From a bacterium (GTDB lineage: Bacteria; UBA9089; CG2-30-40-21; SBAY01): a stretch of 64,000 nt of DNA. The notes below the pieces were generated by a model that saw only the letters and a list, made by a program, of their open reading frames with translations, did not search any database and was not told where the DNA came from. Location of the stretch: NCBI GenBank assembly GCA_040757115.1, contig JBFLYA010000001.1, forward strand, positions 6,526 to 70,525, given 5' to 3'. This document shows positions 1 through 64,000 of the stretch, one piece after another. The first letter of the stretch is position 1. Every line of letters starts with the position of its first letter. Made by a program: the position numbers and the translations under genes.

Positions 1-3000
1 GTAAAGGTAGTAATGAATTTACCATTTGGTTCTGTCGTTACTTTAGTAATAGTCCTGGTAGTCCCAAAGTCAATCTGGATAAGTTCAGTCGCATAAAATC
101 CTGTGCCAATAATACTAACAATAGTCCCTACTGTCCCCCTATCTGGACTTACCACAGCAATTTCCTGGAAGATAAAGATATATCTTGTATCCTGTTTGCC
201 TGAATCAAGTCCCATAGGTGTAACCGAAGTTGTCCCATAAACCTGGGTATCAATGGTAAATGTAGTATAGAATCTTCCCTGTGCATCTGTTGAAATTGTA
301 GTAATAGTTAATGTCCTACCAAAATCAATTTGAATAAGTTCTGGTTGTGCAGGATTACTTTCTGGATTATATCCTTTCCCTTCTATAGTAATGATTGTTC
401 CCACTGTTCCTTCAGTTGGAGCAAGTAGAGAGATACCAGGTCTGATAAGGAAAGAGGTATAGGCACATTCTTCTGAAGGAATACCTCTAACAGTTACGGT
501 AATCCTACCCGATTGTTCATCAACGGTGAAATTAGCAATAAATTCACCAATGCCATTGGAGGTAGAAGTAGTAATAGTAAGTGTCGTACCAAACTGGACA
601 AATATATCCTCAGTCGCACCATAACCATTACCCCTTAGAGTAACAACAGTTCCCACTGGACCACTATCATACCAGATACTGGTTACATTACCTCTAACTG
701 CAAAGAAGTTTGCGGCGGAAGTATTCTTATCTCTCGCCACAACCGTCTTTGTAGCGGCAATCTGAGTATCGATAGTAAATGTGGTTCTAAATTGACCATT
801 CCAATCAGATGAGGTAATAGTAATGGTAGAATGTGTACCAAAATCTATACCAATTAACTCACTGACACCATACCCCGTGCCTTCTATAGTAACTATACTA
901 CCAACCGACCCTTGTGAAGGTGAAACAACCGTTACCCGACCTGTAATCGTAAATGACCCTAATGCGACTAAAGTGGTCTCAGAACCTGTAGCCTTAATTG
1001 TTGTTCGACCATAAGGCTGAGTATCTACGGTAAATGTAGTTGAGAATGTTCCCAAACTATTAGTCAAACCAATTCCTACAGTTCTACTGGTTCCAAAATC
1101 AATATAAATCGTCTCCGTCCTGCCAAATCCATCGCCTACAACGGTAACAATAGTTCCCAATGAACCCGAAGTAGGTGTAACCTTAATAATATTTCCATAA
1201 ATGAACAATGTCTTTTCATTCACCAGCCCCATTCTTAATCCAGTTGCCCGAACAGTAGTGCTTCCGGCAGGTTGTGTATCAATGGTAAATGTCGTGGTAA
1301 AAGTCCCTCTGATATTTGTTGTCACCGTAGTTATGGTTAGGAATGTTCCAAAATCAATCTGGATAAGCTCACTGGCATCAAAACCATTACCTCTCACGAT
1401 AATCTTTGTTCCCACAGAACCTCTATCTGGTGAAACTAAACTAATCTCGCCAACAATGAAGAAATTCTCCACAAAAATGTATCCTGCATTCCCTGTAGTA
1501 TTTCCACGATCAGTAATAGTCTTGGTTCCTGCAGGTTGTGTATTAACCGTAAATGTAACCGCATAGGTTCCAAAATTACTACAGTTAGTTTTGACAATAT
1601 AATTGCTATAAGGTGACTGATATGCATGATCAAAAATACCAAAGAAAAGTTTTACCTCTTCATTCTCCTTCCAGTGACCATTTCCAACCACCGTAACGAT
1701 GCAGCCAACAGAACCACGATTAGGTGTTACTAAAACAATTCTTGGGGTAACAAAGAACAGTCCTTGTTTAACACTTGCCTGCCCGGTGAAGATACCTGTA
1801 GCGACAATAGTGTTGAGATAATAAAGTTGCGTATCCACGCTAAATGTAGTCTCAAATTCACCACGATAATTAGAAGAAGTAAGAGCAATCGTCACCGTTG
1901 TCCCAAAACTTATTCTCACAAGTTCTGACTTTCCATATCCATTTCCTTTTACGGTAACAACTGTCCATGCAGGACCTTTTGTCGGTGTAATAAAGGTAAT
2001 TTCTGGAATAATCACAAATGGGTCCTCGGCAATTTGACCCGAACCTTCACCAGTAGCAATGATACTTGTCGTGCCATAAATCTGGGTATCAATACTAAAC
2101 ACCACCGTAAACGAACCAATCGTATCCGTAGTAGTTATTGTCATTGTCTTAGTTGTGCCAAAATCGATAAATATTCGCTCCTGCACACCATAGCCATTAC
2201 CTGCAACAGTAACAAACGACCCTACTGTTCCAGAAGGCGGTGAAATCAGAGTAATATTTCCTGTAATAACCATGAAATTCAAAGTCTCTTGAAGTGATGC
2301 ACCAGCACCTTTGGCAAAAATCGTTGTTGTGCCAAAAGGTTGAGTGGTAACGGTAAATGTGGTGGAGAAAGTCCCACCCAGCTGAGTTGGGGTAGCAGTA
2401 GTCGTCCCCACAAAATATTGCGTGGAAGTTCCTTTACCAAAATAAACACCTACATTCTCATTAGCACTATAACCATCACCCCAAATAATAACAATTGTTC
2501 CTACACTACCACTCGTAGGTGAGACTTGGTAAATTCGACCAACTATTCTGAAGTAATTGAACTTCTGTTGAGAAAAACTCGAAGCACATATAGTTGTAAA
2601 ACCATAAATTTGGGTGTTGACTGTAAATGCAGTTGAAAATGTCCCTGTAGGTGTAGTCCATGTTTTCACAATTGCTGATATCTCTCCAAAATGAATCATT
2701 ACTTCTTCTGATGCTTTATACCCATCACCTTTGACCGTGACAATTGTTCCAATTGTTCCTGATTCTGGACTAACTAAAATGATATTACCTACGAGAGTAA
2801 AATCAGGACTAAGTGTTATCGTTCCTGAAGAAATATACCCAAATATACTTATTGTCTTTGCACCATACACCTGGGTATCAACCGTAAAGGTCACCCGGAA
2901 AGAACCATCATTTGAAGAAGTTGTCGTTGCAATTGGTAATGTAGTTCCAAATTTAACTTCAATCGTCTCTGAACCACTAAATCCACAACCTTCTATAGTT

Positions 3001-6000
3001 ACTATTGTTCCTACACTACCATAGGTAGGTGAATATAATGTTATGCCACGATTAATCACAAAATAGACTGTATCTTTATTTTGCGTCGTCAATCCTGTTA
3101 CCATAACAGTAGTCGTTCCTGAAGGTTGAGTATCGACAGTAAAAGTTAAACTAAATGTCCCTAATGTACTTGAAGTTACTGTAGTTATAGTCTTATTTAT
3201 CCCAAAATCAACTCTGACAGATTCTCTCTCTCCAAAACCATTACCTTCTATAGTCACCGTTTCCCCGACTAACCCTGATGTTGGATAGAAGTAAATAATT
3301 TTACCATCTATATAGAAGGTATTCTTATAATAAGGATTATTCAGTGTTGTGGAACCCATATTTCTTCCAACTACAGTAATCGTTACCGTCCCACCTATCT
3401 GGGTATTAACCGTAAATGAATAAGCGAATGTTCCTCCTACTGATATTTGGAACGGATTATTTTGAATGGGCTTAAAAGTACCAAACATAACAAGGACAGA
3501 TTGACCGTTTCCCATATGTGAACAATACCCATCTCCAAAGACAGTAATTAGCGTCCCAACAATCCCATGCGATGGAGAAACAAGAGATACCCTACTCAAA
3601 ATTCTGAATGTTACCGAATATGACCCGGTTGAATTTACTCCTGATGCGGTCACAGTTTTAGAACCCCAGGTACCTTCCACTAAGGTTGCTGGTTGAGTAT
3701 CAACCGTGAAATAAGTAGAGAATGTCCCGTAGGCATTTGTGGTTGCAAAGGCTATACTTACCGTACTACCAAAACTAATCCTTACCTGCTCTGTCGCACC
3801 ATATCCATCACCGACCACCGTTACTCGAGTCCATTCTATCGGTCCTGACTTAGGCGTTAAGGTAATAATCTTGGAAAGGATAAAGAAGGTATCACACGCC
3901 TCCCGCGTTCGAGAAGGATCATCACCCTCACTCTTCCATACATTCCACGCAAGTATTGTCGTTAGACCATAAGGTTGTGTATCTATAATAAAGTTAAATG
4001 TAAAGACACCTTTACTATCTACTTGCACTTCTTTATATTCTATCTGAGGAACAGTACCAAAATCAACCTTTACATACTCAGAGGCGATAAATCCATCACC
4101 CATAACCGTAATGTATGTTCCTACAGTGCCTATATTAGGTGAAACTAAAATAATATGTGGGGTTATCTTAAATTTCAAGTAGTCATATCCAGGACTATAT
4201 GAATTAATTACCTGACCTGAATTCAAACCTCGGACTTCCATCGTCTTTGTCCCATAAGGTTGAACATTTATCGTAAATATAGTTGTCCATGAACCATACG
4301 CATTAGTGGTAACTAAATTAATCGTCGGCGTATTTCCTAAACTTATACGGATAGTTTCAGTTGCTCCAAATCCTGTCCCTTCAATCGTTACATAAGTTCC
4401 TACACTACCTATTCTTGGAGTATATAAGGTAATCTCGGGAATTATCTTAAAGGTAGTCTCTCTTACTTGCTGTGTCTTTATCCCGATAACTTTAATAGTC
4501 GTAGTGCCATAGATTTGTGTATCAACCGTAAATTCAGCACTAAACTCACCACTAACATTTGTTGTCGTAGAAACAATAGTAACCGTCGTGCCAAAATCAA
4601 TTTGAATTACTTCACTCAAACCATAACCATTACCTGTTACCATAACTCGAGTATTTACTATTCCTTGAGCAGGATTAACCTGGGTAATATTAGGTCTAAT
4701 ATGGAAGAAATTAATACTATATTCCCTATGAGTATTTCCTGTAACTGTAATAGTTGTCGTCCCATACGGCTGAGGGATATTTGGATTAAATTCAATATCA
4801 CTCCGTTCACCTATCACTGAAACCTCATATGGAGAACCCCCAACACTAATTAAAGTTCCAAAATCAACTTGCACCTGCTCTTCTATCCCATAACCGGTTA
4901 CAGCTATTCGTATCTTATAATTACCAATTGTTCCATACATAGGAGTAACAGATGGAATAGATGGTATGATACGGAAATAGTCGTGCTGGTCTTCCCCTGA
5001 AATGATACCAAAAACTCTAACTGTCTTTGTTCCTAAATACTGCGTATCCACCGTAAATGTTGCTGCGAACACTCCATCATTATTTGAGCTAACTAAGGTA
5101 ATACTTCTGGTTGTCCCAAAATCAATCTGGATAGTTTCACTTATGCCATAACCATTACCGGATATGCTTATCATCGTACTTACCGAACCTATTCTCGGTG
5201 CAAGATAGGTCAATGATTTATAAATCACAACTGTAGTTATTGTGCTGGCAAAGCTATTTAACCCAATACCAGTAACCGTAGTTGTTCCAGCAGGTTGGGT
5301 ATCAATCGTAAATGATACGGTAAATGTCCCGATTTCATTACTTGTAGTCCTCGTAATAGTCGAAGTCCTACCAAAATTAATCACTACTGGTTCCAACTTA
5401 TCATACCCTGTCCCAAATACTGTAACTATCGTACCTACACTTCCCTCTACAGGCTGAACAAATATCTTTGGCATAATCATAAATGAAACCTCTCTCTCGA
5501 ACTGACCACCCCTGGCTATGACAGTCTTTGAACCATATATTTGAGTATCAACCGTCCATACTGTCCAGAATGTTCCTAATTCATTAGTTTTAGTTCCAGC
5601 TTCGGTATATGGTTTTCTATCTCCAAACCAAATATCAATACTTTCTGTTACTCTATACCCTGTCCCATGCAGGCTAACAAGGCTACCTACCGTCCCGGCA
5701 ACTGGTGAAATAACAATATTAGGTAAAACACGATAAGATGTATCTTCTGCAAATTTATTGCTTTCATCACTTGCCGTTATCTTTACTGAACCATAAGGCA
5801 CATCTTGTGAAGTAAATGTAGTGGTAAAGGAACCTGTATTATCCGCCGAAGTCTGTGTAATCGTTAGATAATGTCCAAAATCTATCCTTATGGTATGATT
5901 GGGACCAAAACCGGTTCCTTTAACCATAATAATCGTCCCAATTGTGCCTTCACCTGGCGAAACTAAAGTAATACCTTGAACTATCTCAAAGAAATTAATC

Positions 6001-9000
6001 GCACAGACACCTGATGGTGTGCCCTTAGCTGTAATAGTATTCGTGCCGTTCGACTGTGGTTGAATCTCAAATGATGTATTAAATTCACCATCAAAATTAG
6101 AAGTAGTTGTTGCCATTGGTATAAGATTCTGTGGCCAATAAACCTCAACTAATTCTGATGACCCATAACCATTACCTTGAACACTAACTATTGTCCCTAC
6201 AGGTCCTTGAACAGGTGAAACAATGGTTATCTTTGGACCAATAGTGAAATAATTAACGGCTTCCTGTTTTGGAGCATTCACCTCATAAGCCAATACCGTT
6301 GCTGTTCCAGCAGGTTGTGTATCAATAGTAAATGTTACTGTAATAGTCCCATTACCTGAAGACGTAGTATTAGCCTTATCCATAACCGTATTATGCGGGT
6401 CTATCTCTGTCCCAAATTGAATCTTGACCGGTTGATTATTTCTATAGCCACTACCATATACTGTTACTACTAATCCAACTGTACCAGAAGATGGTGAAAT
6501 CCTATAGATATTAGCAATAATCTTAAATGATGCTGTGGCTACCTCTAAAGAAAGCGTCCCTGTCGCCATAACTAATTTAGGAGAATGCGAACTATCCACA
6601 GGCTGTGTATCTACGGTAAAGATAGTATCAAATGACCCATTATGAATTGTCGAAACAGTCGTAATCGTTCGTGTCCATCCAAAACCTATGACTACTAACT
6701 CTGATGCACTGTAACCATTTCCTTTAATGGTTACAACAGTAGTTACTGGACCAGTAGTCGGTGTAATTAAATAAATATTAGATTTAATAGTCAGTGTGCC
6801 ATAAGGATTACTGCCTGAATCTATTCCCGTTGCCCGCACTGTTGTTATTCCAACGGGTTGGGTATCGATAGTAAATGTCGTGTTAAAGTAACCTGCCGCA
6901 TCGGTACTGGTAACATTTATACTCTTTGTCGTCCCAAAATCTATCCGTATACACTCACTACCTCTAAATCCATCCCCTTGCACGATAATTATAGTTCCCA
7001 CAGTGCCGGTCTTTGGCGAAATTACCTTTACGGTTGCCTGAACGGTAAAGGTTCCACTTGCCTCTTTACTGGTATTTATTCCAACTGCTTTAATCGTAGT
7101 TATCCCTACTGATTGGAGATCAACCGTGAAAACTGCAGTGAACGAACCATAGGCAGTAGTTGTAATAAAGGTAATCGTAGGTGTTGTGCCAAAGTGAATA
7201 TGTATTGGCTCTGTTGCACCAAATCCATTCCCTCTTACCATGACAGGTATTCCTATTGTCCCATCTTTAGGCTGAATCAGGATAATATTAGGCAAGATAG
7301 TGATCGTGCCTACTGCCTCTTCACTTCCCTTTGCCTTGACGGTAGTTACGCCATAAGGTTGGGTATTAATGGTAAAGGTAGTTGTCCAGCTTCCTTCTGC
7401 CACGCTGGATGCCAATCGAATATTAGAGTTAGTCCCAAAATCTATATGAATTGTCTTGGATGCCCCATAACCATTTCCACTTAGAGTTATGATTGTCCCT
7501 ACTGTTCCTTCTTTTGGAGTAATGGAAATGATATTGGATGAAATACTAATTGTGCCTTTATCTGAAATCCCATCTCCAGAAGCAACAATCGTTGTTATAC
7601 CATAAGGCTGGGTATCTATGGTAAAGGTAGTGGTAAATGAACCCTCGGCATAAGCAGATACAAATTGAATACTCCTTGTCGTCCCAAAGTCTATTTGAAC
7701 CGTTTCAGATGCTCTATATCCATTACCTCGTAAAGTAATAATTGTCCCTATCGTTCCTTCGGTTGGCGAGATAAAGATAATCTTTGGTTCAATTCTAAAT
7801 TTAACCTCGTAGGTAATCGTTCCTCCACACGCCCTAACTGTGGTCCAGCCATAAGGTTGGGTATTAATCGTAAAGGTAGTTGTAAAACTGCCACCTGCAC
7901 TGGTAGAAACAGTGGTTATAGTTTGTGTCGTCCCAAAATTAACATAAACCGTATCATTCCCACAATAACCATCTCCAGATACGGTAACTATTATTCCTAC
8001 TGTGCCGGAGGTTGGAGTAATATACACTAAGTTCTGTTTAATAAATGTATTATCAATGGCAAATATACCCAGGGCATCATTATAGGCTATAATAGTCGTC
8101 CGTCCATAAGGTTGGGTATTAATGGTGAATGTGGTTGAGAAACTGCCGTAGGCATCTGTTGAGGTAAAGGTAATACTTGGTGTCGTGCCAAATTTTATAC
8201 GAATAGTTTGACTGGCTCCAAATCCATTACCGGTTATGGTTACGATTAACCCTACCGTTCCTTCTGTTGGTGTAACTCCTGTAATAGCAGGTTCTATTCT
8301 GAAAGTAATATAAGCCGGATAATTCGAGTTCAATCCTGTTGCTTTAATCGTTGTCGTCCCATATTTCTGGGTATCGATAGTAAAGGTAACCGTAATTGAC
8401 CCTGATTCTACGGCAGTAACTGTATTAATGGTCAGGGTAGTTCCAAAATCTATCTGCACTAATTCATTACTCAGATAACCATTTCCATAGAGAGTAACTA
8501 TCGTGCCTACAGTTCCCGCGGTGGGAGTAATCTGGACTAACTTCGGTGCTATCTTAAACAGTAACGAATATGCCGATGTGCCGGTATTTATTCCCCAGAC
8601 GGTAATAGTAGTCGTCCCAATTCGTTGAACATCTACGGTGAAGGTAGTTGAGAACGACCCACATCCTTCTGAAGTAATCATAGTAATAGTCTGATTAGTT
8701 CCAAATTGAATTTGCACTGACTCATTACCACCAAATCCATTACCTGCTACCGTAACCACACTACCAACTGTTCCTTCTGTTGGTGTAACTAAAATAATAT
8801 TCGGTCCAATAAAATAGGTATTGCTTGCAGATACATCTCCCTCTTCCATATCAACGGCAACAACCGTTGTCGTTCCATAAGGTTGAGTATCAACTGTAAA
8901 TGTCGTTGAGAAACTACCTTGTGCATAAGTTGAGGTCATAGTAATAGTCTTATTTGTCCCAAAGAGAATATGAATGGTATGACTGGCGCCAAAACCATTA

Positions 9001-12000
9001 CCGGTTACCGTCACTGTAGAACCAACGGTGCCATTAGGTGGTATAACTGTAGTAACCTTTGGTTTTATGGTAAATGTCTCGATTGCAGAATTGAGTGGAC
9101 AGGTCGCCTTGATTGTAGTAACCCCACTTTGTTGGGTATTAACCGTAAAGGTAATTGTCCATGTCCCTGAAGCGTTAGCAGAAACCGTTGTAATTGACCT
9201 GGTAGTTCCAAAATCAATCCGCACGGTTGAAGCAGAACCAAAACCATCACCTTCTAATGTTACTATTGTCCCCACTGTGCCTTCTTTGGGTGTAGAGGTA
9301 TAGATTTTTGCCATTACATAGAAGATATTTGATGCTCGCTTTTCGTATTCAAGCATTTGTGCATATTTATATGAATTCCAGGCAGTAAATGTAGTTGTTC
9401 CTGCTGGCTGTTGAATATTAAAGTCATAGACCAAACTAAATGTCCCTGCCTGACTGGCATAAGTACCACCATAAGGAGGTGCTGGTGGTGTTACACTAGA
9501 ATCCGTACCATATATTGTCCCAAAATCAACATAAATCCCTTGACTTGCCGCATAGCCTGTGCCAAAGAGGGTAATTTGACTTCCCACCGTCCCTTTAGTC
9601 GGTGAAACCCAGACTAACTCTGGAATTATCTTGAATAAATCATCTACACCACCTGTATCATCATCTTCAAAACAAGAAGTTGTATCTGTGCCATAGATAG
9701 TCTTTGTTCCATAGGATTGGGTATCAACTGTCCATGTGCCATTAAATTCACCTCTATCCGTTGCCGTCGTAATCGCAATTGTTCGTGTCCAGCCAAATCC
9801 AATCAGCACCTCACCACCACCGGTATAACCATTACCCGAAACGGTAACTATAGTCCCTACCGTTCCCTTAATTGGAGTAATGCTAACAATATGTGGTACT
9901 ATTCGTAAGGTATCTGTAGCTTGTTCACGACCTGTAGGTTCTTTCGGACCGATAGCCATCGCTGTCGTTGTTCCAAAGACTTGAATGTCAATGGTAAATG
10001 TTTTCGTAAATGTCCCTGAGGCATTAGTCGTAGCAATAGTAATGGTGGAATTATTACCAAAGGCAATACGGATATTGCTATTTTCAGTATAACCTCTACC
10101 TTCAATCGTAATTGTTGTTCCTACGGTAGCAGACTTAGGTGTAAGTGTAGTAATTATCGGTAAGATAAAGAAGTAATTGCGTGCCCATTGTGCTGTGCTC
10201 AGACCAATAACCTTAATAGTTGTCGTGGCAAAAGGCTGAGGTATAGAAACTACACTCTGATCGAATTTTGCAGTAAATGTCCCTTCTGGAGAGACTCTCG
10301 GGTGAGTATCTGGCTCAATAATCACAAATCCCGTATTAGCAACTAAACCATACTCTGTCCCATAATCAATTGTTATATTTTCTCCATTTACACCATCTCT
10401 ACCAAAACCTGTTCCCTTAATAGTAATTATAGTTCCTATTGTCCCTGTAGTTGGACTAACCACAGTAATTTCTGGAATAAGAACAAAATATCTATACTGG
10501 TCAGGTCCTTTATTCCAGTATTCACCCCACTTATCTACTTCCTGAGTGTTAAGTCCTGTAGCCACAATCGTCTTGGTGCCAAAGTATTGGGTATTAACCG
10601 TAAAGATAGTAGCAAATGTCCCGGCATTGTTAGTTGAAACTGTGGTTATAGTTAAGGTTGTGCCTAAATCTATCTGCACTACCTCATTAGCACCATAACC
10701 ATCACCCTGAATAAGAATTGTATCTCCTACCTGTGCCTTCCATTTATCTGGCACATCAAAATGTGGCACTTCTACTTGCCGACTGATTAGTGTAATATGT
10801 GAATTTATCTTAAATAAGTCATCACTGCGATGATTATCCAGATCAAAGACATCAGCCGCCACAATTGTATGTGTCCCTGCCGGCTGTGTATTTACCGTAA
10901 AGGTAATACTGAATGTTCCACAGGCATTTGTCTTTGTTTCGGTAATAGTGGTAGTCTGACCAAATGTTACCCGCACGGTAGCCGTAGCCGCATAACCATC
11001 ACCAGCTATAGTTACAATTGTTCCTACAGACTGTGCCCTTGGTGTAACCAACCAGATATGCGAAATTATCTTAAAGGAATCTACATCCCTATATTCATCT
11101 TTATCAAAGTCATTGTATCCCATCCCTCCTGGTATCATACGAAATGCCTTAATAGTTGTCGTCCCATAAGATTGTGAATTAACATTAAATGTAATTGAAA
11201 ATGTCCCATTATAATTTGCAGTCTGTTGGATTATTGCCCAGCTAGTCCCAAACTCTATCGTTACTGTCCCCTGACGATGATAACCATTTCCATAAACTGT
11301 AATTGGCAATCCTACCGTCCCCACAGTAGCGGTAACATAAACAATATTATGCGTAATCTTGAAATAAGTATGATATTGTGTAGTAGTCCGTTCCCCGACT
11401 GCATTGACCGTATGTGTTCCATAGCATTGTTCATCAACCGTCCATTGTGTTATAAAACTACCATTGCCTGCTGCAGTTACCGTTGTAATACTCATATTTG
11501 TCCCAAATTCTATACGAATAAGTTCACTACCACCATAACCTGTTCCACTTACCTCTACTACAGTTCCCACTGTTCCGGTAAGAGGTGTAATACTAATTCC
11601 AGGGATAATTATAAAGTAATCATAATCCTTTGTAATCTGACCTGTGGCTGTAATAGTAGTTGTTCCCACAGGTTGAGTATCAACCACAAATGTGGCACTA
11701 AATGTTCCATTAGGTCCGGCAGTAGACATAGTAATACTTATATGTGTTCCAAAATCAATCTGGACAATTTCACTTGCCAGATAACCACTTCCTATGATAG
11801 TAACTTGAGTCCCTACTTGCCCTGAAGGAGGAATTACACTTATAATTTCTGCCTTTATAAAGAAGTTATTAAATGCCTCTTGTTTAGACATACCTTCAAG
11901 TGTTCCTCTACTTCTTACCGTAGTAGTTCCTGCTGGTTGAGTATTAATAGTGAATATATAAGTAAACTGTCCAATACCATTACATGTAGTTATTATATTA

Positions 12001-15000
12001 AATTCAACTGTAGTTCCAAACTTAATTTTTAGCTCATCCCCTGCATCATAACCATCACCATAAATTGTTACCCGACTTCCTACTGTCCCTTGTGTTGGCG
12101 AAACGGTATGAATCCTGGCGATAATGGTGAAACTACCCATCAAAACTCGCCCTGATGTGAGTCCTGTTACCACAACACTCTTTGTCCCAAAAGTCTGCAC
12201 ATCAACCGTAAATGTCAATGAGAAACTACCGTATGCATCTGAAGTGGTAATAGTTATAGTCGAATTAACCCCAAACCTGACATGAATGGTCTCTGTTGCT
12301 TCAAATCCATCACCCGTAATAGTAACCACTGTCGTTACTGTCCCTATGGTTGGGGTAAATAGTGTAAATTGCGATAAAATATTAAATGTCCCGCTTGCCT
12401 GCTGACCTGTATTTATGCCTCTTGCAGTAATCGTTGTCCAGCCATATCGTTGAGGATTGATAGTAAATGTAGTGCTAAATGAACCTGAATCAGTCGTCCT
12501 GGTAACAATGATACTCACCGTCGTTCCAAAATCAACCTGTATCTCTTCACTCGCTCCAAACCCACTACCGGCTACTGTAACGATTGACCCAACAGTATTG
12601 GCTTGTGGCTCAACCTTGAATATCTCTGGCTTGATAACTATCAACCGATAATCTTGCACCAAATCAACCTCATTTATATCTGTGGCAATAATGGTTGTCG
12701 TGCCGTAAGGTTGCGTATTGATTGTGAAGGTAATTGTCCATGAACCCTGCGGTTTAGAGATAACCGTTGTAATCGTCTTTGTCGTTCCAAAGTCAATCTG
12801 AATAGTATGAGTTGCACCAAATCCATTACCGCTTACCATAATAATCGTTCCTACTGTGCCTTCTATTGGACTGTAATAAATAATTTGTGGCAAAATAGTA
12901 ATGGTAGCAATTGCCTCCTCACTTCCTCTTGCCTTGATAGTCGTAATTCCATATCTCTGTGTATCGATAGTAAATGTAGTTGTAAAGCTGCCTTCGGCAT
13001 AAGTTGAGGTAACTTGAATACTTGGCGTTGTCCCAAAGTCAAGATGAACTATCTTGTATGCCCCATAACCATTGCCTTTAACCGTGATAATTGCACCGAC
13101 AGTCCCTGATGTTGGTGTAAGAGAGATAACATTTGACTCGATACTTAAAGTCCCTTCTGCCTTTATTACTTTACTATCGCTATGAGCAACAACAGTAGTA
13201 ATTCCGTAGTGTTGGGTATCAATGGTAAAGGTAGTAGTGAAGCTACCTTCGGCATAAGTTGAGGTAGTTTGAATAGTTAGTGTTTTTCCAAACTCTATCC
13301 GAATGATGGTTGAGGCATCGTAACCATTACCTCTAATAGTAATTATCGTCCCTACAGTTCCAGAGGTAGGTGAAATAAGAATGATATTCGGTAGAACAGT
13401 TACACTGCCATAGCGATGTAATCCCTGGTCATCTCCATGAGCACCTACTGTCGTTGTGCCATAAGGCTGCGTATCAATAGTAAATGTTGTGGAGAAACTT
13501 CCTTGTGCATAGGTTGAGGTAAGTTGAATAGTCGGTGTAGTTCCAAATTCTATCCTTATTGTCCTTGAGTTGCCATAGCCATTACCACAAATAGTAATGA
13601 TTGTTCCAACCGTGCCTTGCGTTGGTGACAGGTAGATGATATTGGGTAATATAGTAAGAGTCTTTTCTGCATTAATACCATCGCCATGTCCCTTTACTGT
13701 AGTTGTCCCATAGGGTTGAGTATCAATAGTAAATGTGGTAGTGAAGCTACCTTCGTCATAAGTTGAAGTAAGTTTAATAGTTGGTGTTCTCCCAAACTCT
13801 ATACGAATCCTTCTATAAGCCTCAAAACCATCACCCCTCACTATAACTACCGTTCCAACTGTCCCTGTATTTGCGGTAACATAAACGATATTTGGCAGGA
13901 TAAAGAATGTCAGGTTATCGGCATCGGCACCGGTAGTCATACCTGTTGCTTTAATCGTTGTCACACCATAAGGTTGTGTATTGATGGTAAAGGTAGTAGT
14001 GAAGCTACCTTCTAACTCTGCTGTCACAGTGGTAATCGTCATTGTCGTGCCAAAATCTACCTGGATTAACTCACCTGCTTTATATCCACCACCGCGTAAT
14101 GTAACTACTACACCGACAGTTCCTTGAGTTGCAGTTACTGACACTAATTGCGGCTTAATCACATACTCAAACTTCCAACTGCTCTTGCCAGTCATAACCC
14201 CAATTGCCTCAATAGTCGTCGTGCCTATCGGTTGAGTATCAACCGTAAAAGTAGTGGTGAAGCTACCGCAGTATTCTGCAGAAACTAAGGTAATTGTCTC
14301 TGTCGTTCCAAACTTAATTCTTACTAACTCACTTGAACCATAACCATTACCTCTAACTGTAACTACACTTCCTACTATGCCTTCTTTTGGCGTAATTAGT
14401 ATAATCTCTGGAATAATTCTGAGTCTATCATCATCTGAGGCAATATCTCCTGCAATAGCCTGGACATCCACTGCCACAATGGTCGTCGTGCCATAAGGCT
14501 GTGTATCAATGGTGAAGGTGGTTGAGAAACTACCGTGTGCATAAGTAGAAGTCATAGTAATCGTTTGATTAGTTCCAAAGAGAATATGAATGGTATGACT
14601 GGCGCCAAAACCATTACCTGTAACCGTAACTATTGTCCCTACTGTAGCTACCGCAGGAGTAACTGAAGTAATAACAGGTTTAATTCTAAATGATTCCGTA
14701 GCAAAGTTAAGTGGACAGGTAGCAGTAATTAAGGTATTACCACTCTGTTGCGTATTAACCGTAAAGGTAATGGTAAATGTTCCTGAGGCATTAGCAGAAA
14801 CCGTAGTAATAGACCTGGTAGTTCCAAAATCAATCCGCACGGTTGTAGCAGACCCAAAACCATCACCTTCTAATGTTACTATCGTCCCCACTGTGCCTTG
14901 TTTCGGTGTAGATGTATAGATTTTTGCCATCACATAGAAGATATTCGATGCCTTCTTATCATCACCTTGTGGTATCGCGTGAGTATATGAATTCCAGGCA

Positions 15001-51000: not shown

Positions 51001-54000
51001 CTTCCTATTATCCCTTGTTGAGGTGTAACATATTCTACTTGTGGCAAAATCTTAAAGGTATGTGTTGCTCGTTCAGAAGAAATAAATCCTATAGCAATTA
51101 TCGTTGTGCTACCATAAGGTTGAGTAGTAATAGTAAATGTCATAGTAAAAGAACCTTCTGCTACTGAAGTAATAGTATTAATAGTAGGATGAGTACCAAA
51201 ATTGATATAAATTAATTCTGTGGCTTTATAGCCATTTCCATATACAGTAATAATATGCCCTACAGTGCCTTGTTGTGGTGTAACAAGAAAGATATTTGCC
51301 TTTATAGTAAATAATTCATCATCTACATTAGCTGTATTTTTATCTACCTCAGAAGCTTTAATCGTCGTTATTCCTGCTGGTTGGGTATCAATCGTAAAAG
51401 TAATCTGAAACACTCCATTAACATCTGTCGTGGCAACAGTGATACTCCGCGTCGAACCAAAATCAATTCTAATCTCTGCTGTTGGACTATATCCAGCACC
51501 ATTTACTGTAATTATAATTCCTACTGTTCCCACCTTAGGATTAATCCACCTGATTCCTGCCTTGACATAAAACCCTATAGAAGCTACTGCCTGTGTTTGA
51601 CTTCCAGTAGCGGTAATAGTTTGTGGACCAACAGGGTATCCTTCAGGAACAGTAAAAGCACTGGTAAATGTACCAAAATTTGTTGTAGTCACAATACCTG
51701 CCGTTATGACGGTAGCTCCAAAAACAATCTTTATCTGTTCAGTTACGCCATATCCAGTTCCTAATATCAATATATCCGAACCTTCTGGTTTCTCCGGAAT
51801 ACTACTTAGAACCTGTTTTGTTTCTGGATCTAAATGCACAAGATGTGGCAATATCTTAAATTGATTAGTCTGTGTAGCATTAGTAATCAATCCTGCCGCC
51901 ATAATTGTTGTTGTCCCATATTTTTGGGTATTAATGGTAAATATAACTGTAAATGAGCCGTATGCAGTCGAGGTAATAAAGGCAATAGAAGAAGTTAATC
52001 CAAAATCAATCTTTATCTTTTCTGTCGCTCCATAACCATTACCCGATACAGTAACATTACTTCCTACTGTTCCTTCAGATGGAGTAACTGAAAATACCTT
52101 AGGTAATATAGAAAACTGGGTATTGCTTGCTGATTCACCTAAATTGCCTATAGCAATGATAGTAGTTGTCCCATATTTCTGAGTATCTACGCTGAAACTA
52201 ATGGTAAATGAACCATATTCAGTAGCGGTTGTAGTAATGATATTTACTGTAGTCCCAAAGTTAATCCTTACTTGTTTAGAGGCAGTAAAACCATTACCTA
52301 TTACAGTAATTTCGCTTCCTACTGTCCCGGATGTTGGTGTAACAGAGGTAATGAAAGGTAGAATAGTAAATGTTCCTTTAGGAAAGTAAGCGTCACTGAT
52401 ACCACCTATTCCATGTGCTTGAATAGTAGTCACTCCATATCCCTGAGTATCAACGGTAAAGGTAGTGGTAAAAGAACCAATCTCATCTGCCGAAATAACT
52501 GTAATAGTTCTAATAGTCCCAAAATGTATCTCTATCCCTTCTGTTACTCCATAACCATTGCCTTTAACAGTAACAATTGTTCCTACTGTTCCTTCTTTTG
52601 GAGATATAGAGAAAATTTGAGGTCTTATCTTAATCGTCCCGTTTTTACCTGCAGAAGCTGCACCTGAATTAAAACCATAACCGTTAACTATGGTATCACC
52701 GTAAGGTTGGGTATCAACAGTAAAGGTACTCGAGAAAGAACCAAACTCACTAGATAGAATAATAGTAATTGTTCTTGAATTACCAAACTGAATTCTTACA
52801 TTTTCATTGGCTCCATAACCATTACCCCTTACCTCTACTACATCTCCTACATAATTCTCAATGCCACCAAGTGTAGGATAAATTATTTTTGCTTTCATAT
52901 ATGTATATGTTCCTGCATTAACACCTGTGGTTAATCCATAAACAGTAATTGTAGTTGTCCCATAGGGTTGAGTATCAATAGTAAATTGCACCGTAAATGA
53001 CCCAAAGGCGGTGGTCTTACGGTCTGTACTTATAGTTATACTTCCTACTGTTCCAAAATGTATCCTTATCGTTTCAGTAGCACCAAAACCATTACCACTT
53101 ATCCCCGCGCCATATCCTTCCCAACAATAATTTTGGTTCCCATAAGTTATCAAATCTGCATCAAGCCAAATAATATTTGGTTTAATCTCAAATGTAGTGG
53201 TTGCTGAGAAACCGTAGGCAACAGATGTAAGTCCAGTTGCTTTGATAGTCGTTGTGCCTGCTGGCTGAGTATTTACCTTGTAACTAACACTAAATGTGCC
53301 GTTTATTGTCGTTGTGCCAATAGTAATGCTCTCAGTCGTCCCAAAATCTATCTGCACATATTCTGACGCCCCAAACCCATCACCAAAGACCGTAATAAGC
53401 CTCCCTACCGTCCCTACTGTCGGCGTAACATAAACCGCCGGGAGGATGGTAAAGGCCTCTACATCTATAACATTAGGAAAACCACTCGTAGTAACTGTAA
53501 TACTTGTTGTACCCACAGGTTGCGTATTTACTGTAAAAGAATAAGTAAAAGTACCATTACTACCCGCAGAATACCACATTTGTTTCATCCCAAAATCAAT
53601 TATTAATGCTTGTCCACCCACATAACCATTTCCTTCTAATGTTACCCACGAACCAACTGTCCCAGAAGAAGGTGAAACCGATGTAATATTCGCCGTTATA
53701 GTAAATGTCCCACTTGCTGATATATTAGTAACACTACCATAAGCATTAATAGTTTTTAAACCATAGTCCTGTGTATCAATAGTAAATGTAGTTGTAAATG
53801 AACCTATATTATCTGTAGTTGTTCTTGTAATTGTAGGATGATTCCCAAATGCGATACGAATTCCCTCAACGCATCCAAAACCATTGCCTTTTAAAGTAAT
53901 AATTGTCCCTACTGTTCCAGATGAAGGTGTAATTAAGATAATATTAGGACAAATCCTATAAAATTCCCACTTTATTTGCCCACCACCATACACTTTAATC

Positions 54001-63000: not shown

Positions 63001-64000
63001 TACTCATTTTCATCGATTTCAATAACTACCTCCTCATTAGGATACCCTGTGCCACTGATAGTTATATTTGTTCCTACCGTTCCTCTTGTCGGCGTAAATA
63101 AGGTTATTTGCGATTTTATCATAAATGTATTAGGCGAGGTTCGAGTTGCAACCGCACCTGTATCAGACCCATAGGCCACAATATCCGTATATCCATACTT
63201 TTGCGTATCCACTGTAAATGTAGTTGTCCATGAACCGTAGTATCCAGGGCTTGTAGGGTCAGTAGAAACTAAAGTAATCGTCGCATTAGTCCCGAATTTA
63301 ATCCTGACTAATTCATTTTGACCATAACCATTACCCCTTACCGTAACAACACTCCCCACCACTCCTTCTGTTGGCGTAACTAAAATAATATTTGCCGTTA
63401 TACAAAAAGTGCCTTCCTCAGATAGATAAGGAGAACTATGCAACGCTTTAATAGTCTTTATTCCATAAAATTGGGTATTTACTGTAAAAGTAATTGTAAA
63501 TGAACCATAGTCAGTACTTGAACCTGTGGTAATCCCTTGCATTCCTCCCTGAGCTGGGTCACCAAAGTCAATTCTCACCGTATCACTTGCCCGATACCCA
63601 TCACCTCTTACCGTAACAATAGTCCCCACTGAACCTGAGGTAGGAGTAACAAATACAACCCTCTGTCTTATACTAAATGTCCCCCTGGCAGAAATATTAT
63701 AATTTTTATCCGTATATGGGTATCCCTGGCTCTTCCATACCGCAGTTATAGAGGTTATCCCGTAAGGTTGTGTATCAACTTCAAATACTAATCTTATTAA
63801 ACCCTTATTATAGTCTGATGACATACTCCTGATATGCCATTCCCACTCGTCATCAGCCCATGATGGAGATGATGCTCCTGCTGCCCCTTGCACTGTTCCA
63901 AAATCTATCGCTATATACCCCGTAGATGGATAGCCTGTTCCTTCTACCGTTACTGAAGTCCCTACCGTCCCCGTAGTAGGTGAAACAAGAATAATATTAG
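1..64000 (-). CDS. Internal segment of one giant ORF, partial at both ends, encoding at least ~21,300 aa of tandem Ig-like (IPT/TIG-like) ~83-aa domains; probably a giant extracellular fibrillar or adhesin-type protein
   Basis: The reverse-complement frame (plus-strand codons starting at positions divisible by 3) was checked by hand at positions 243, 1560, 7608, 8367, 9420, 11040, 15027, 20226, 33909, 43350, 47433, 49824, 52179, 55599, 60018 and 63201 and is always the same. Translations made by hand at four locations are all coherent repeat-domain sequence. At 7591-7870: INTQPYGWTTVRACGGTITYEVKFRIEPKIIFISPTEGTIGTIITLRGNGYRASETVQIDFGTTRSIQFVSAYAEGSFTTTFTIDTQPYGITT. At 59995-60250: AGTVTILPNIIVITPTQGTVGTIITIRGNGYGASRTIRIEFGTTPTIQFTSTYARGSWTTTFTIDTQPYGTTSV. 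At 1560-1760: KIVLVTPNRGSVGCIVTVVGNGHWKENEEVKLFFGIFDHAYQSPYSNYIVKTNCSNFGTYA. At 20470-20650: ILPAIWKVELSEGTVGSVVTITANGYPKEGLVWIGFGTTPTIQTVSANVNGTFSVSFTINTQ. The ORF track has no long minus-strand ORF, and all 14 short minus-strand ORFs share one off-frame (codon start position leaves remainder 2 on division by 3). Unit lengths and indels between paralogous copies are multiples of 3. Amino-acid conservation exceeds nucleotide conservation between paralogous copies. Confidence 0.88.
7100..12650 (-). repeat. Copy A of a ~5.6-kb tandem segmental duplication (higher-order module of ~22 Ig-like units)
   Basis: Aligned by eye to 12700-18280 at a constant offset of ~5605-5620 nt. Matching points are 7290/12895, 8881/14498, 9301/14921 and 11821/17431. 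The core 8.9-11.8k versus 14.5-17.4k is roughly 80-90% identical at nucleotide level; the flanks are more diverged. Confidence 0.8.
12700..18280 (-). repeat. Copy B of the ~5.6-kb tandem segmental duplication
   Basis: See copy A. Relative to copy A near 12320, copy B carries an in-frame insertion of about 11-12 codons near 17930-17990. Confidence 0.8.
12950..14300 (-). repeat. Homogenised array of near-identical ~250-nt (83-aa) Ig-like units
   Basis: Units start at about 12958, 13211, 13465, 13717, 13975 and 14235. They share long identical strings such as ggttgggtatcaatggtaaaggtagtagtgaagctaccttcggcataagttgagg. Confidence 0.75.
20403..27652 (-). repeat. Higher-order module (~7.25 kb, ~29 Ig-like units) bounded by a recurring marker domain
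   Basis: A marker domain starting tttggcagtatcttgtaggt at 20403 recurs at 27653. The internal order of diverged units is collinear with the next module, for example 21970-23100 with 29220-30350, 20650-21300 with 27900-28560, and 20221-20400 with 27481-27650. Confidence 0.7.
25430..27250 (-). repeat. Homogenised array of near-identical ~250-nt Ig-like units
   Basis: Units start at about 25447, 25687, 25935, 26200, 26445, 26697 and 26957. All carry ...ccataaggttg(g/c)gtatc.at.gtaaaggt.gt.gt.aa... followed by gcataagttgagg. Confidence 0.75.
27653..34862 (-). repeat. Higher-order module (~7.2 kb) paralogous to 20403-27652
   Basis: The same marker domain recurs at 27653 and 34863, with a collinear series of unit types between. 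The LRGGGY-type unit at 27065 matches the one at 34275. Confidence 0.7.
32650..34100 (-). repeat. Homogenised array of near-identical ~250-nt Ig-like units
   Basis: Units start at about 32665, 32915, 33165, 33415, 33660 and 33905, with the same core motif as the 25.4-27.25k array. Confidence 0.75.
34863..40397 (-). repeat. Higher-order module (~5.5 kb)
   Basis: Marker domain at 34863 and 40398. The stretch 36181-36700 aligns to 41690-42230 at an offset of ~5510, roughly 80% identical by eye. Confidence 0.7.
40398..45811 (-). repeat. Higher-order module (~5.4 kb) paralogous to 34863-40397
   Basis: Marker domain at 40398 and 45812. The stretch 39200-40700 aligns to 44700-46100 at roughly 85% identity, with a 27-nt in-frame length difference at 39480-39540. 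Confidence 0.7.
57190..60560 (-). repeat. Longest homogenised array (~13-14 near-identical ~255-nt Ig-like units)
   Basis: Units start at about 57200, 57465, 57715, 57975, 58235, 58490, 58755, 59255, 59505, 59765, 60020 and 60285. Each encodes a close variant of the sequence hand-translated at 59995-60250 (...PNIIxITPxxGTVGTIITIRGNGYxASxTIRIEFGTTPTIQFTSTYAxGSWTTTFTIDTQPYGTT...). Confidence 0.8.

Follow-up and report, generated by a model that had tools for sequence, protein, structure and literature searches.

Does the 64,000-nt stretch of DNA analysed here (the window) lie entirely within one gene, and what kind of protein would such a gene encode? A six-frame count gave no stops in the 21,332 codons of one minus-strand frame (3..63998; first full codon 63998-63996, last 5-3; a partial codon at each window edge), compared with 831, 880, 1,598, 1,642 and 2,764 stops in the remaining five frames. 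At the lowest stop rate of any other frame (3.9% per codon), chance predicts ~830 stops, and the open frame is therefore no accident. This continuous ORF is the internal part of a gene; for the visible part of the protein the mass is 2.26 MDa and the pI 5.3. Codon bias in the open frame is strong (position 1, A 41% and G 31%; position 3, T 41%), in a window with a GC content of ~40%. The original prediction had placed the window wholly inside one reverse-frame gene of at least 64 kb, with the short minus-strand ORFs in one other frame and the TIDTQPYG motif in a single frame. The six-frame count confirmed the reverse frame, 14 of 14 such ORFs of at least 60 aa were in one other frame (0 in the third), and all 19 occurrences of the motif were in the open frame. 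The long minus-strand ORF was indeed missing from the accompanying ORF track, where ORFs of at least 110 aa were on the plus strand only, because the listing omits ORFs that run off the window ends.

The statement that the window has no start codon, promoter or terminator was loosely worded, since the open frame has in-frame ATG codons (144 Met) and consensus matches exist, but these matches do not exceed shuffle expectation. Across 1-60000, promoter-like (sigma-70-like consensus) sites numbered 48, 51 and 52 versus 66.7, 58.9 and 65.4 expected, and terminator-like sites 5, 9 and 10 versus 10.9, 10.9 and 11.8. Searches of the window for Rfam families and tRNAs returned none. The window also contained no signal-peptide-like or hydrophobic segment (maximum Kyte-Doolittle 19-residue mean 1.84), and no transmembrane-like segment, GGxGxD/RTX or LPxTG motif was present in its 21,332 residues.

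Using our own unit HMM, an 85-position profile, we found that 244 tandem units of ~86 aa each tile the translation in one frame and phase, with no gap above 40 aa and no linkers. All features described here are on the minus strand. The N-terminal-most unit in view, unit 0 (63663..63998, aa 1-112), starts at unit position 1 and has a loop insertion, without start-codon context or signal peptide. The last, unit 243 (3..164), is cut by the window edge at profile position 54 of 85, and the gene must therefore run on beyond coordinate 1. The HMM also revealed two N-terminally truncated units: unit 46 (51558..51785), which lacks the first 12 profile positions and is in frame, and unit 203 (10473..10739; profile 12-76), which is followed by a ~15-aa spacer.

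A 1,000-aa piece of the array matched Pfam TIG (PF01833) at 118.9 bits, above the gathering score, and 35 of 120 single units matched TIG individually; CGTase domain D (1cyg 499-540) was a further, weak profile match. AlphaFold2 modelling of a representative 85-aa unit (32076..32330) predicted a 7-strand Ig-like beta-sandwich with a pLDDT of 94.3, and three consecutive units modelled together (32586..33344) gave a string of three beta-sandwiches without linkers (pLDDT 94.7, pTM 0.82). The three-unit model matched Ig/FN3/MG strings in Foldseek, including fibronectin, titin FnIII, the 6xi3 adhesin repeats and invasin. The most conserved unit residues were G22 and G48 (100%), G34 (98%), and F33 and Q59 (96%), and the Thr content was 18.5%, with a threonine-rich surface. 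Together, the profile matches and models indicate that the units are IPT/TIG-type Ig-like beta-sandwich domains of a divergent subfamily. By strand order, the most conserved loops GTVG, FGT and DTQPYG would lie at one end of the domain and GNGYG at the other.

The units are old and diverged. Their median pairwise identity is 41%, TRF detected almost no DNA-level tandem repeats in the window, and exact DNA repeats reach at most 44 bp (8959-9002 and 14575-14618). This longest repeat is inside a segmental duplication in which units 179-188 (copy A, 14409..17210) correspond to units 200-209 (copy B, 8802..11600), copy B being the one that includes the truncated unit 203. Units 21 apart in the two copies are 68-88% identical, and over 924 codons the copies have an aa identity of 75%, a dN of 0.18, a dS of 0.88 and a dN/dS of 0.21. 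A smaller duplication relates units 68-71 (45048..46061) to units 89-92 (39624-40637) with 72% aa identity and a dN/dS of 0.22, and an older one relates units 112-118 (32844..34601) to units 140-146 (25623-27392) at a lag of 28 units, with 62% aa identity and a dN/dS of 0.12. The most similar unit pair of the window is unit 138 (27654..27902) and unit 166 (20403-20651), at 89% aa identity, a dN/dS of 0.20 and a dS of 0.37. The dN/dS between intragenic duplicates was 0.11-0.22.

Two relatives allowed the same comparison between genes. The closest relative found, L014 (JBFLZA010001214.1, a 1.5-kb NCBI MAG contig), is 91% identical in aa to 25107..26648 (aa 12451-12964), with a dS of 0.19 and a dN/dS of 0.28. 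An independent JGI metagenome scaffold, L022 (Ga0181613_1000757, nt 1-9304), is collinear unit for unit with 3..9395 (aa 18202-21332) at 66-67% aa identity, with a dN of 0.16-0.30 and a dS of ~1.0-1.15. The match covers the last 3,131 residues in view and reproduces the order of 36 consecutive units, and the L022 array carries more units past the window edge. Over old and recent comparisons alike dN/dS was 0.11-0.28, so selection acts on the protein and the units are under purifying selection. Collectively, these results establish that the whole 64-kb window is the interior of one intact, selected protein-coding gene that spans 64 kb or more.

Two readings would deny the locus this status. The contig could be a chimeric or expanded assembly of mis-joined repeats from several shorter TIG-repeat genes, and related arrays in short-read MAGs are indeed fragmented with odd junctions: L023 lacks ~25 aa inside a unit and the L022 scaffold has a gap of 10 N. 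Against this, exact repeats of at most 44 bp and ~41% unit identity leave little for assemblers to confuse, TRF found essentially no DNA tandem repeats, all 244 units share one frame and phase without a stop, and L022 gives the same 36-unit order independently; we regard such an artefact as highly improbable. Alternatively, the window could be a repeat expanse that was inactivated recently or never expressed and is still open. In L022 one in-frame TGA occupies the position of an invariant glycine and a ~40-nt deletion breaks the frame, and at least this relative may be decaying or mis-assembled. The window, by contrast, has no stop over 64 kb where stops make up at least 3.9% of codons in other frames, its dN/dS is low throughout, and the structural residues are kept across units, which makes a relic just as hard to credit. 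Old, diverged units under purifying selection and a collinear independent contig thus render mis-assembly or a pseudogene very unlikely.

The window shows neither end of its own gene, the gene ends are absent from L014 and L022, and an attempt to chain L021 or L022 to the window gave no join. The relatives that do show ends have arrays 36-41% identical to that of the window. At the N-terminus, L025 reads 'MEPSSFKKKLKVLAGGVCLFVISGIFAPREASG' with units directly after, and P0121 has a signal peptide too. At the C-terminus, three relatives (L019, L021 and L027/P0111) have ~125-aa repeats, a second and unannotated repeat type, followed by a tail that passes TIGR04183, the T9SS type A sorting domain (23.6 and 29.6 bits; cut-off 23). 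A T9SS type A domain closes each of the three C-termini recovered for long arrays built from this TIG unit. A porV-family gene is directly downstream in L019 (NF033709, 141 bits; cut-off 90) and L027 (PF19572), and in L021 the start of the gene is present. At least 12 shorter proteins with the same TIG unit have a related sorting domain at their C-terminus. Among more than 120 homologs with Pfam annotations, PF18962 is the recurring C-terminal module, and none is annotated with RTX, SLH, LPXTG or PEP-CTERM. Of the anchoring modules that the original prediction had listed, the T9SS C-terminal domain was thus found, in relatives, while RTX and LPxTG are absent from the window.

The T9SS, classically associated with Bacteroidota (PMC12618676, PMC10994853), relies on a Sec signal peptide, a C-terminal domain and a shuttle protein, and shuttles are genetically linked to large adhesins (PMC12618676, PMC9143113). 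We consider it fairly probable that this internal gene part, which encodes at least 244 TIG domains, belongs to a fibre or adhesin that is exported by the T9SS and anchored at the surface. We extrapolate from relatives in giving the gene a signal peptide, a sorting domain and a porV neighbour, and this assignment is conditional. By analogy with these, the full protein would comprise, from N- to C-terminus, a Sec signal peptide, the TIG array at once, a block of ~125-aa repeats and, last, a sorting domain of T9SS type A. It would be exported by Sec, pass through the T9SS, be handed over to the PorV-family shuttle encoded immediately downstream and be fixed to the outer surface through its C-terminus. 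The linkerless array may act as a semi-rigid stalk and, judged by its architecture, could serve as a long-reach tether, adhesive fibre or surface coat; no binding or enzymatic module is visible in the window. With ~3.5-4 nm assumed for each Ig-like domain, the visible part would be ~0.85-1 micrometre long, and the product is most likely a micrometre-long cell-surface fibre. To our knowledge, no characterised T9SS cargo is of such size.

A real giant secreted Ig-like array could instead have another export, anchoring or role, for instance as a fibre of the T1SS 'RTX adhesin' type (MpIBP/SiiE/LapA), as part of an S-layer or sheath around the cell, or as a shed extracellular matrix protein. Nothing in the window fixes the secretion route with the ends out of view, and the TIG unit is found in many different architectures alongside NHL, beta-propeller, beta-helix, cohesin and dockerin domains. 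The missing GGxGxD, LPxTG and transmembrane-like segments, the type A domain and porV-family gene of the long-array relatives, and the annotations of the homologs all argue against these options, which we judge possible but rather unlikely. A T9SS-exported surface fibre is the reading we prefer.

The core of the original prediction, a gene of at least 64 kb for a giant repetitive surface-type protein, is supported, and its comparison with Chlorobium and Omnitrophota-like genomes gives way to Candidatus Desantisbacteria, to which most named homologs belong. The window probably derives from an uncultivated, Desantisbacteria-like bacterium; MAG names of the form '_40_xx' would agree with its GC content of 40%, provided that their first number stands for GC%. 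Its rank among the largest prokaryotic genes is dated, as proteins of 85,804 aa (bioRxiv 10.1101/2023.11.21.568195) and of 147,155 aa have been reported, the latter in a study that clustered the sequences of 5,761 proteins, each 10 kaa or longer (bioRxiv 10.64898/2026.06.07.730766). With at least 21.3 kaa visible, the protein is 'large' (10-30 kaa) and not yet 'giant' (at least 30 kaa) by published definitions (bioRxiv 10.1101/2023.11.21.568195). Single-domain giants have already been described, and the gene belongs to a known class of giant repeat proteins and sets no size record; its remarkable features are size and monotony.

Like IPT/TIG domains (PF01833, the E-set Ig-like fold of plexins, Met, EBF, NF-kB and CGTase domain D), the window units are 7-strand beta-sandwiches with the characteristic N-terminal 'sP..G..gG..vtv.G.gF' pattern. 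They differ in their own conserved 'TFTVDTQPYGTTTI' motif, in the threonine-rich surface and in occurring as at least 244 copies in a row, compared with a handful in known proteins. Titin has roughly 300 Ig and FN3 domains together, and the same-kind domains here are of the same order as that total. In titin, cyanobacterial SwmB and the RCC1-type giants of Oscillospiraceae (bioRxiv 10.1101/2023.11.21.568195), too, a single domain type fills the visible length, the putative role is extracellular and structural or adhesive, and the copies have diverged at the DNA level, so that the array is old and stable. Here, however, the domain is IPT/TIG rather than RCC1, Ig-I/FN3 or SwmB repeats, the gene probably comes from a Desantisbacteria-like lineage and the putative C-terminus is of T9SS type. 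The Omnitrophota giants (West-Roberts et al. 2023; Nielsen & Lui 2026, bioRxiv 10.64898/2026.06.07.730766) also come from uncultivated groundwater-type bacteria, with genes of tens of kb and repeats 'dissolved' at the nucleotide level, and are fragmented in short-read assemblies. They are mostly multi-domain or multi-enzyme proteins with many transmembrane helices, a top reported single-Pfam copy number of 41 and lengths reaching 85,804-147,155 aa, in contrast to the single domain type and absence of transmembrane segments here. The T1SS calcium-stiffened adhesins (MpIBP/'Lap' extender repeats 6xi3, SiiE 2yn3) share long strings of ~90-100-aa Ig-like domains as extender; their sequence family is BIg rather than TIG, and neither the window nor the C-termini of the relatives contain RTX repeats or a T1SS signal. 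Flavobacterium johnsoniae SprB is ~6,500 aa long, less than a third of the visible part of the window protein. The relatives of the window gene resemble SprB (PMC12618676, PMC9143113) in their Sec signal peptide, long repetitive Ig-like body, C-terminal T9SS sorting domain and adjoining gene for a PorV/PorQ/PorP-type outer-membrane shuttle, but their sorting domain is type A (TIGR04183) rather than type B, the neighbour is of the PorV/PorQ family rather than PorP/SprF, and the organism lies outside Bacteroidota.

Six-frame translation of the window revealed no stop codon among the 21,332 codons of one minus-strand frame (codons 63998 to 3), whereas the remaining five frames contained 831-2,764 stops each. 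At the lowest of these stop rates, chance alone would yield ~830 stops. The codon-position composition of the open frame was strongly periodic. The original prediction of one continuous minus-strand frame was thus borne out, as was its observation that short minus-strand ORFs share one other frame (14 of the 14 ORFs of ≥60 aa). The TIDTQPYG motif, which it expected to keep to a single frame, occurred 19 times, each in the open frame. The long ORF was missing from the ORF track, as had been supposed, because the track omits ORFs that leave the window and lists only short plus-strand ones. The prediction also held that the window has no promoter or terminator; consensus matches to such elements do occur, but over 1-60000 they did not exceed the shuffle expectation. 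No Rfam family or tRNA was detected in the window. The plus-strand ORFs, namely 11226-11825 (+) and 11 others of 113-150 aa, were considered as antisense genes and rejected. They encode at most 199 aa of Cys/Arg/Ser/Asn-rich, low-complexity-looking sequence, the four longest had no Pfam match, and they seem to be a side effect of the coding strand's strong codon bias. GC content rose locally to 0.46 at 20001-28000 (window mean 0.40), where the GC and AT skews were also more negative; this stretch lies inside the same ORF, and the amino acid composition of its units showed no noticeable difference.

Using a profile built from the window's own sequence, we resolved the translation into 244 head-to-tail units, of which 243 are full and one is cut by the window edge. 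The full units are 74-112 aa long (median 86), and together the units tile the translation from end to end, leaving no gap of more than 40 aa. A 1,000-aa piece (30999-33998) matched the IPT/TIG family PF01833 in seven stretches with 118.9 bits (gathering score 20.9 bits). One unit on its own scored 27.5 bits; of 120 units, 35 matched at E ≤ 0.01. Another 1,000-aa piece gave no Pfam match at this threshold, which argues that the subfamily is divergent. AlphaFold2, supplied with the units as alignment, predicted a single unit to be a 7-strand β-sandwich (pLDDT 94.3), and three consecutive units were predicted to form a linkerless string (pLDDT 94.7, pTM 0.82). The units are IPT/TIG domains by HMM and have the 7-strand β-sandwich of Ig-like (E-set) domains. 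Matches to F5/8 type C and NedA-like domains in the last 1,000 aa were below cut-off in a region fully tiled by TIG units, and the apparent kinship to enediyne chromoproteins (2mcm; NF040680, 22 bits against a cut-off of 86) was dismissed as generic β-sandwich likeness.

The visible part of the protein has a mass of 2.26 MDa and a pI of 5.3, and contains 18.5% Thr, 11.5% Gly and 0.34% Cys. The best-conserved positions are glycines, core aromatics and the loop motifs GTVG, GNGY/F-G, FGT and (D/N)TQPYG. When the loops were placed by eye from the strand order in the model, GTVG, FGT and (D/N)TQPYG appeared to lie at one end of the domain and GNGY/F-G at the opposite end, an arrangement consistent with a conserved domain-domain interface. 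The reading frame is intact in two units, at 51558-51785 and 10473-10739, that lack the first 11-12 profile positions, probably as a result of old in-frame deletions or unequal recombination. The latter unit sits within a segmental duplication of 21-unit lag.

The median pairwise identity between units was 41% and did not drop with distance along the array. Neighbouring units were 43% identical compared to 42% for distant ones, and the block identity matrix was flat at ~0.41, with no subfamilies along the array. At the DNA level, tandem repeats were almost absent (TRF), and the longest exact repeat in the 64 kb was 44 bp. Judged from these sequences, the units are old. Segmental duplications were recognised between units 179-188 and 200-209, units 68-71 and 89-92, and units 112-118 and 140-146 (units numbered 0-243 from the N-terminus), together with a duplication linking units 138 and 166. 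Across these intragenic duplicates, Nei-Gojobori dN/dS was 0.11-0.22. The same method gave a dN/dS of 0.28 against the closest relative (L014, JBFLZA010001214.1), and dN of 0.16-0.30 with dS of ~1 against the ortholog L022 (the independent JGI scaffold Ga0181613_1000757). Collinear unit-for-unit, the latter shares 66-67% identity with window aa 18202-21332. Since orthologous units are far more alike than paralogous ones, the array keeps a stable order and is not undergoing homogenisation. A chimeric mis-assembly of shorter repeat-containing genes had been raised as an alternative. The divergence of the units, the scarcity of exact repeats, the dN/dS values and the collinearity with L022 together make both this and a dead relic very unlikely. 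The encoded protein strings at least 244 Ig-like domains together without linkers and is under selection.

Some relatives carry damaged arrays. In L022, ~40 nt are deleted within a unit at ~6800-6840 and a scaffold gap of 10 N at 10660-10669 shifts the frame; in a further related locus, L023, ~25 aa are missing at a junction at ~9554-9597. Gene callers break both arrays into several 'partial' proteins, and the breaks may be real lesions or faults of short-read assembly. In-frame TGA codons were seen at two unit glycines that are 100% invariant, G48 in L022 (2014-2016) and G22 in the related locus L001 (7548-7550). These could reflect nonsense mutation from GGA, sequencing error or rare recoding. 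The coincidence of TGA with glycine is weak, because GGA accounts for 35% of one-step TGA precursors. Recoding of UGA to glycine was rejected for the window itself, which has no TGA in 21,332 codons against 2,446 glycines.

The unit at 3-164 is cut mid-domain by the window edge, and the gene therefore continues past the window. At the opposite edge, the first codon is also the start of a unit, and no signal peptide is visible. In L022, TIG units run on for ~2,500 aa beyond the window edge within the DNA analysed, and the gene call extends to the scaffold end (21,796 bp), ~4,160 aa beyond that edge. This extension of the ortholog suggests that the full gene encodes at least about 25,500 aa. An attempt to chain the window through L022 to the C-terminus in a further relative, L021, failed, as the array of L021 and the tail of L022 are not collinear.

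Homologs were found as dozens of 'partial hypothetical proteins' on 2-5-kb contigs, mostly of Candidatus Desantisbacteria MAGs, the signature of a repeat gene shattered by short-read assembly. Such genes are consequently under-counted in a systematic way. Among 1.84 billion representative proteins searched with the profile, 5,660 carried the unit and none came near 244 copies. No protein identical to the window product was found in two word-index searches and the exhaustive profile search, and no array near the window's size was present among the proteins searched. Sequence from the two window ends (100-mers) had no match in the genome, metagenome and viral contigs searched, where family-level scans returned relatives only, none of them viral. 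The best-scoring protein, P0121, has 4,177 aa, and the longest one listed, P0129, is a more distant TIG array of 7,284 aa with 72 matched stretches. Both P0129 and the 4,377-aa P0135 are distant, Ala/Ser/Thr-rich TIG arrays with PKD-like repeats and a membrane anchor at the C-terminus; the richness in these residues suggests high-GC source genomes. Their architecture indicates that similar arrays arise independently with other anchoring solutions. L014, a 1,548-bp contig whose translation is 91% identical to aa 12451-12964, is binned in a 'Cyanobacteriota' MAG and is most likely mis-binned. Long arrays were also seen in other assemblies. The two longest contigs of the MAG 'bacterium Yes70-11' (JASEHA01; L007, L017, L010 and L019), NODE_1 of 57 kb (JASEHA010000001.1, 79 units in 20 kb) and NODE_2 of 33 kb (JASEHA010000002.1, 63 units in 16 kb), are pure TIG array over the lengths analysed, as is the 56-kb contig JAHIZN010000456.1 (46 units in 11.7 kb). 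Coverage was similar, ~20-25x, for NODE_1, NODE_2 and the contig holding a C-terminal end, and ~16x for one other array contig; in view of this similarity, Yes70-11 may carry a gene of at least 100 kb or several giant genes.

A conserved C-terminal end was present in three relatives (L019, L021 and L027/P0111). In each, TIG units are followed by ~10-13 copies of a ~125-aa repeat, located between the TIG array and a type IX secretion system (T9SS) sorting domain at L019:1862-7180, L021:11011-14781 and L027:~900-5093. The repeat consensus resembles PVLSWxGExGYxxDGVxPxxG..FxFxVxYxDxDxxxPxxGYPKVxI, has no match in Pfam or among PDB sequences, and is also interspersed in P0121. The ~90-aa tail after these repeats scored above the cut-off of 23 for the T9SS type A sorting domain (NCBIfam TIGR04183), with 23.6 bits in L019 and 29.6 bits in L021, and P0111/L027 shares this tail. 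A gene for a PorV/PorQ-family outer-membrane protein begins 12-165 bp downstream of the stop of the giant gene, at L019:7267-8325 (NF033709, 141 bits against a cut-off of 90) and L027:5105-6037 (PF19572), with a PorV/PorQ-family-like ORF at L021:14946-15172, of which the first residues only are visible. By analogy with the sprB-sprF linkage, this arrangement suggests that the giant cargo has its own dedicated shuttle. The encoded outer-membrane protein also implies a diderm envelope. Signal-peptide-like sequences, judged by eye, were found at the N-termini of L025, where TIG units follow immediately, and of P0121, where NHL repeats follow.

Based on these relatives and on the T9SS literature (PMC12618676, PMC9143113), the window's gene product would be exported by Sec and pass through the T9SS. 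A dedicated PorV-family shuttle would then recognise its C-terminal domain, and the C-terminus would attach the protein to the cell surface. The array may form a semi-rigid stalk, the visible part of which would span ~0.85-1 µm assuming ~3.5-4 nm per domain, and which could serve as a long-reach tether, adhesive fibre or surface coat. Binding might be provided by a specific ligand-binding module outside the window or by the threonine-rich surface itself. The main rival, less probable but quite possible, is a giant secreted array that takes another secretion route or has another role. The sorting domain, the adjacent PorV-family gene and the signal-peptide-like sequences all come from relatives and point to T9SS export and attachment to the cell surface. 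It is possible, if less likely than not, that the full-length product is a single chain of well over 25,000-30,000 residues, made almost solely of more than 300 IPT/TIG domains. If true, this would be the longest single-domain array known in any organism, above titin's total domain count, and the Desantisbacteria lineage would gain its first described giant gene. It would also be a T9SS-like cargo outside Bacteroidota, several times larger than any known T9SS substrate, with a dedicated PorV-type shuttle. Two questions would follow: how Sec and the T9SS translocon let through a cargo that is a micrometre long and exceeds 2.5 MDa, and how folding avoids misfolding between ~43%-identical neighbours.

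Within the window, the gene is an extreme of the giant-gene phenomenon, with at least 244 copies of one small Ig-like domain in succession and nothing else, each under purifying selection for long enough that identity has reached just ~41%. It offers a natural experiment in how very long tandem-domain proteins escape misfolding and recombinational collapse, and, if the T9SS link holds, a test of how large a protein Sec and the T9SS can export. The named homologs indicate a Desantisbacteria-like affiliation, and the gene extends giant genes to such a lineage; in the literature searched, we found no paper on giant genes or the T9SS in Desantisbacteria. The gene, with its 21,332 stop-free codons, is 'large' by the published definition of a single ORF of ≥10,000 aa, 'giant' being ≥30,000 aa (bioRxiv 10.1101/2023.11.21.568195). 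The original prediction placed the window inside a giant surface-type gene, an interpretation that our results support, but its rank among the largest was overstated, given documented genes of 85,804 aa (bioRxiv 10.1101/2023.11.21.568195) and 147,155 aa (bioRxiv 10.64898/2026.06.07.730766). Giants built from a single repeating domain are also already described, such as the Oscillospiraceae RCC1-type proteins, SwmB and titin (bioRxiv 10.1101/2023.11.21.568195). The gene thus joins a known class, and its length of at least 21.3 kaa is no record. In contrast to the Omnitrophota giants, in which the top reported copy number of one Pfam is 41, at least 244 copies of one domain occur here. The window consists of TIG units only and has no transmembrane-like segment, SecA-DEAD domain or multi-enzyme module of the Omnitrophota type, and the homologs named by source are Desantisbacteria. 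Unlike the T1SS RTX adhesins MpIBP, SiiE and LapA, the product has no RTX (GGxGxD) motif in 21,332 aa, and the C-termini of its relatives are of T9SS type. It also differs from Gram-positive sortase-anchored adhesins, as the window contains neither an LPxTG motif nor a transmembrane-like segment. The likely T9SS-type anchoring, judged from its relatives, would operate here at several times the scale of known T9SS cargo.
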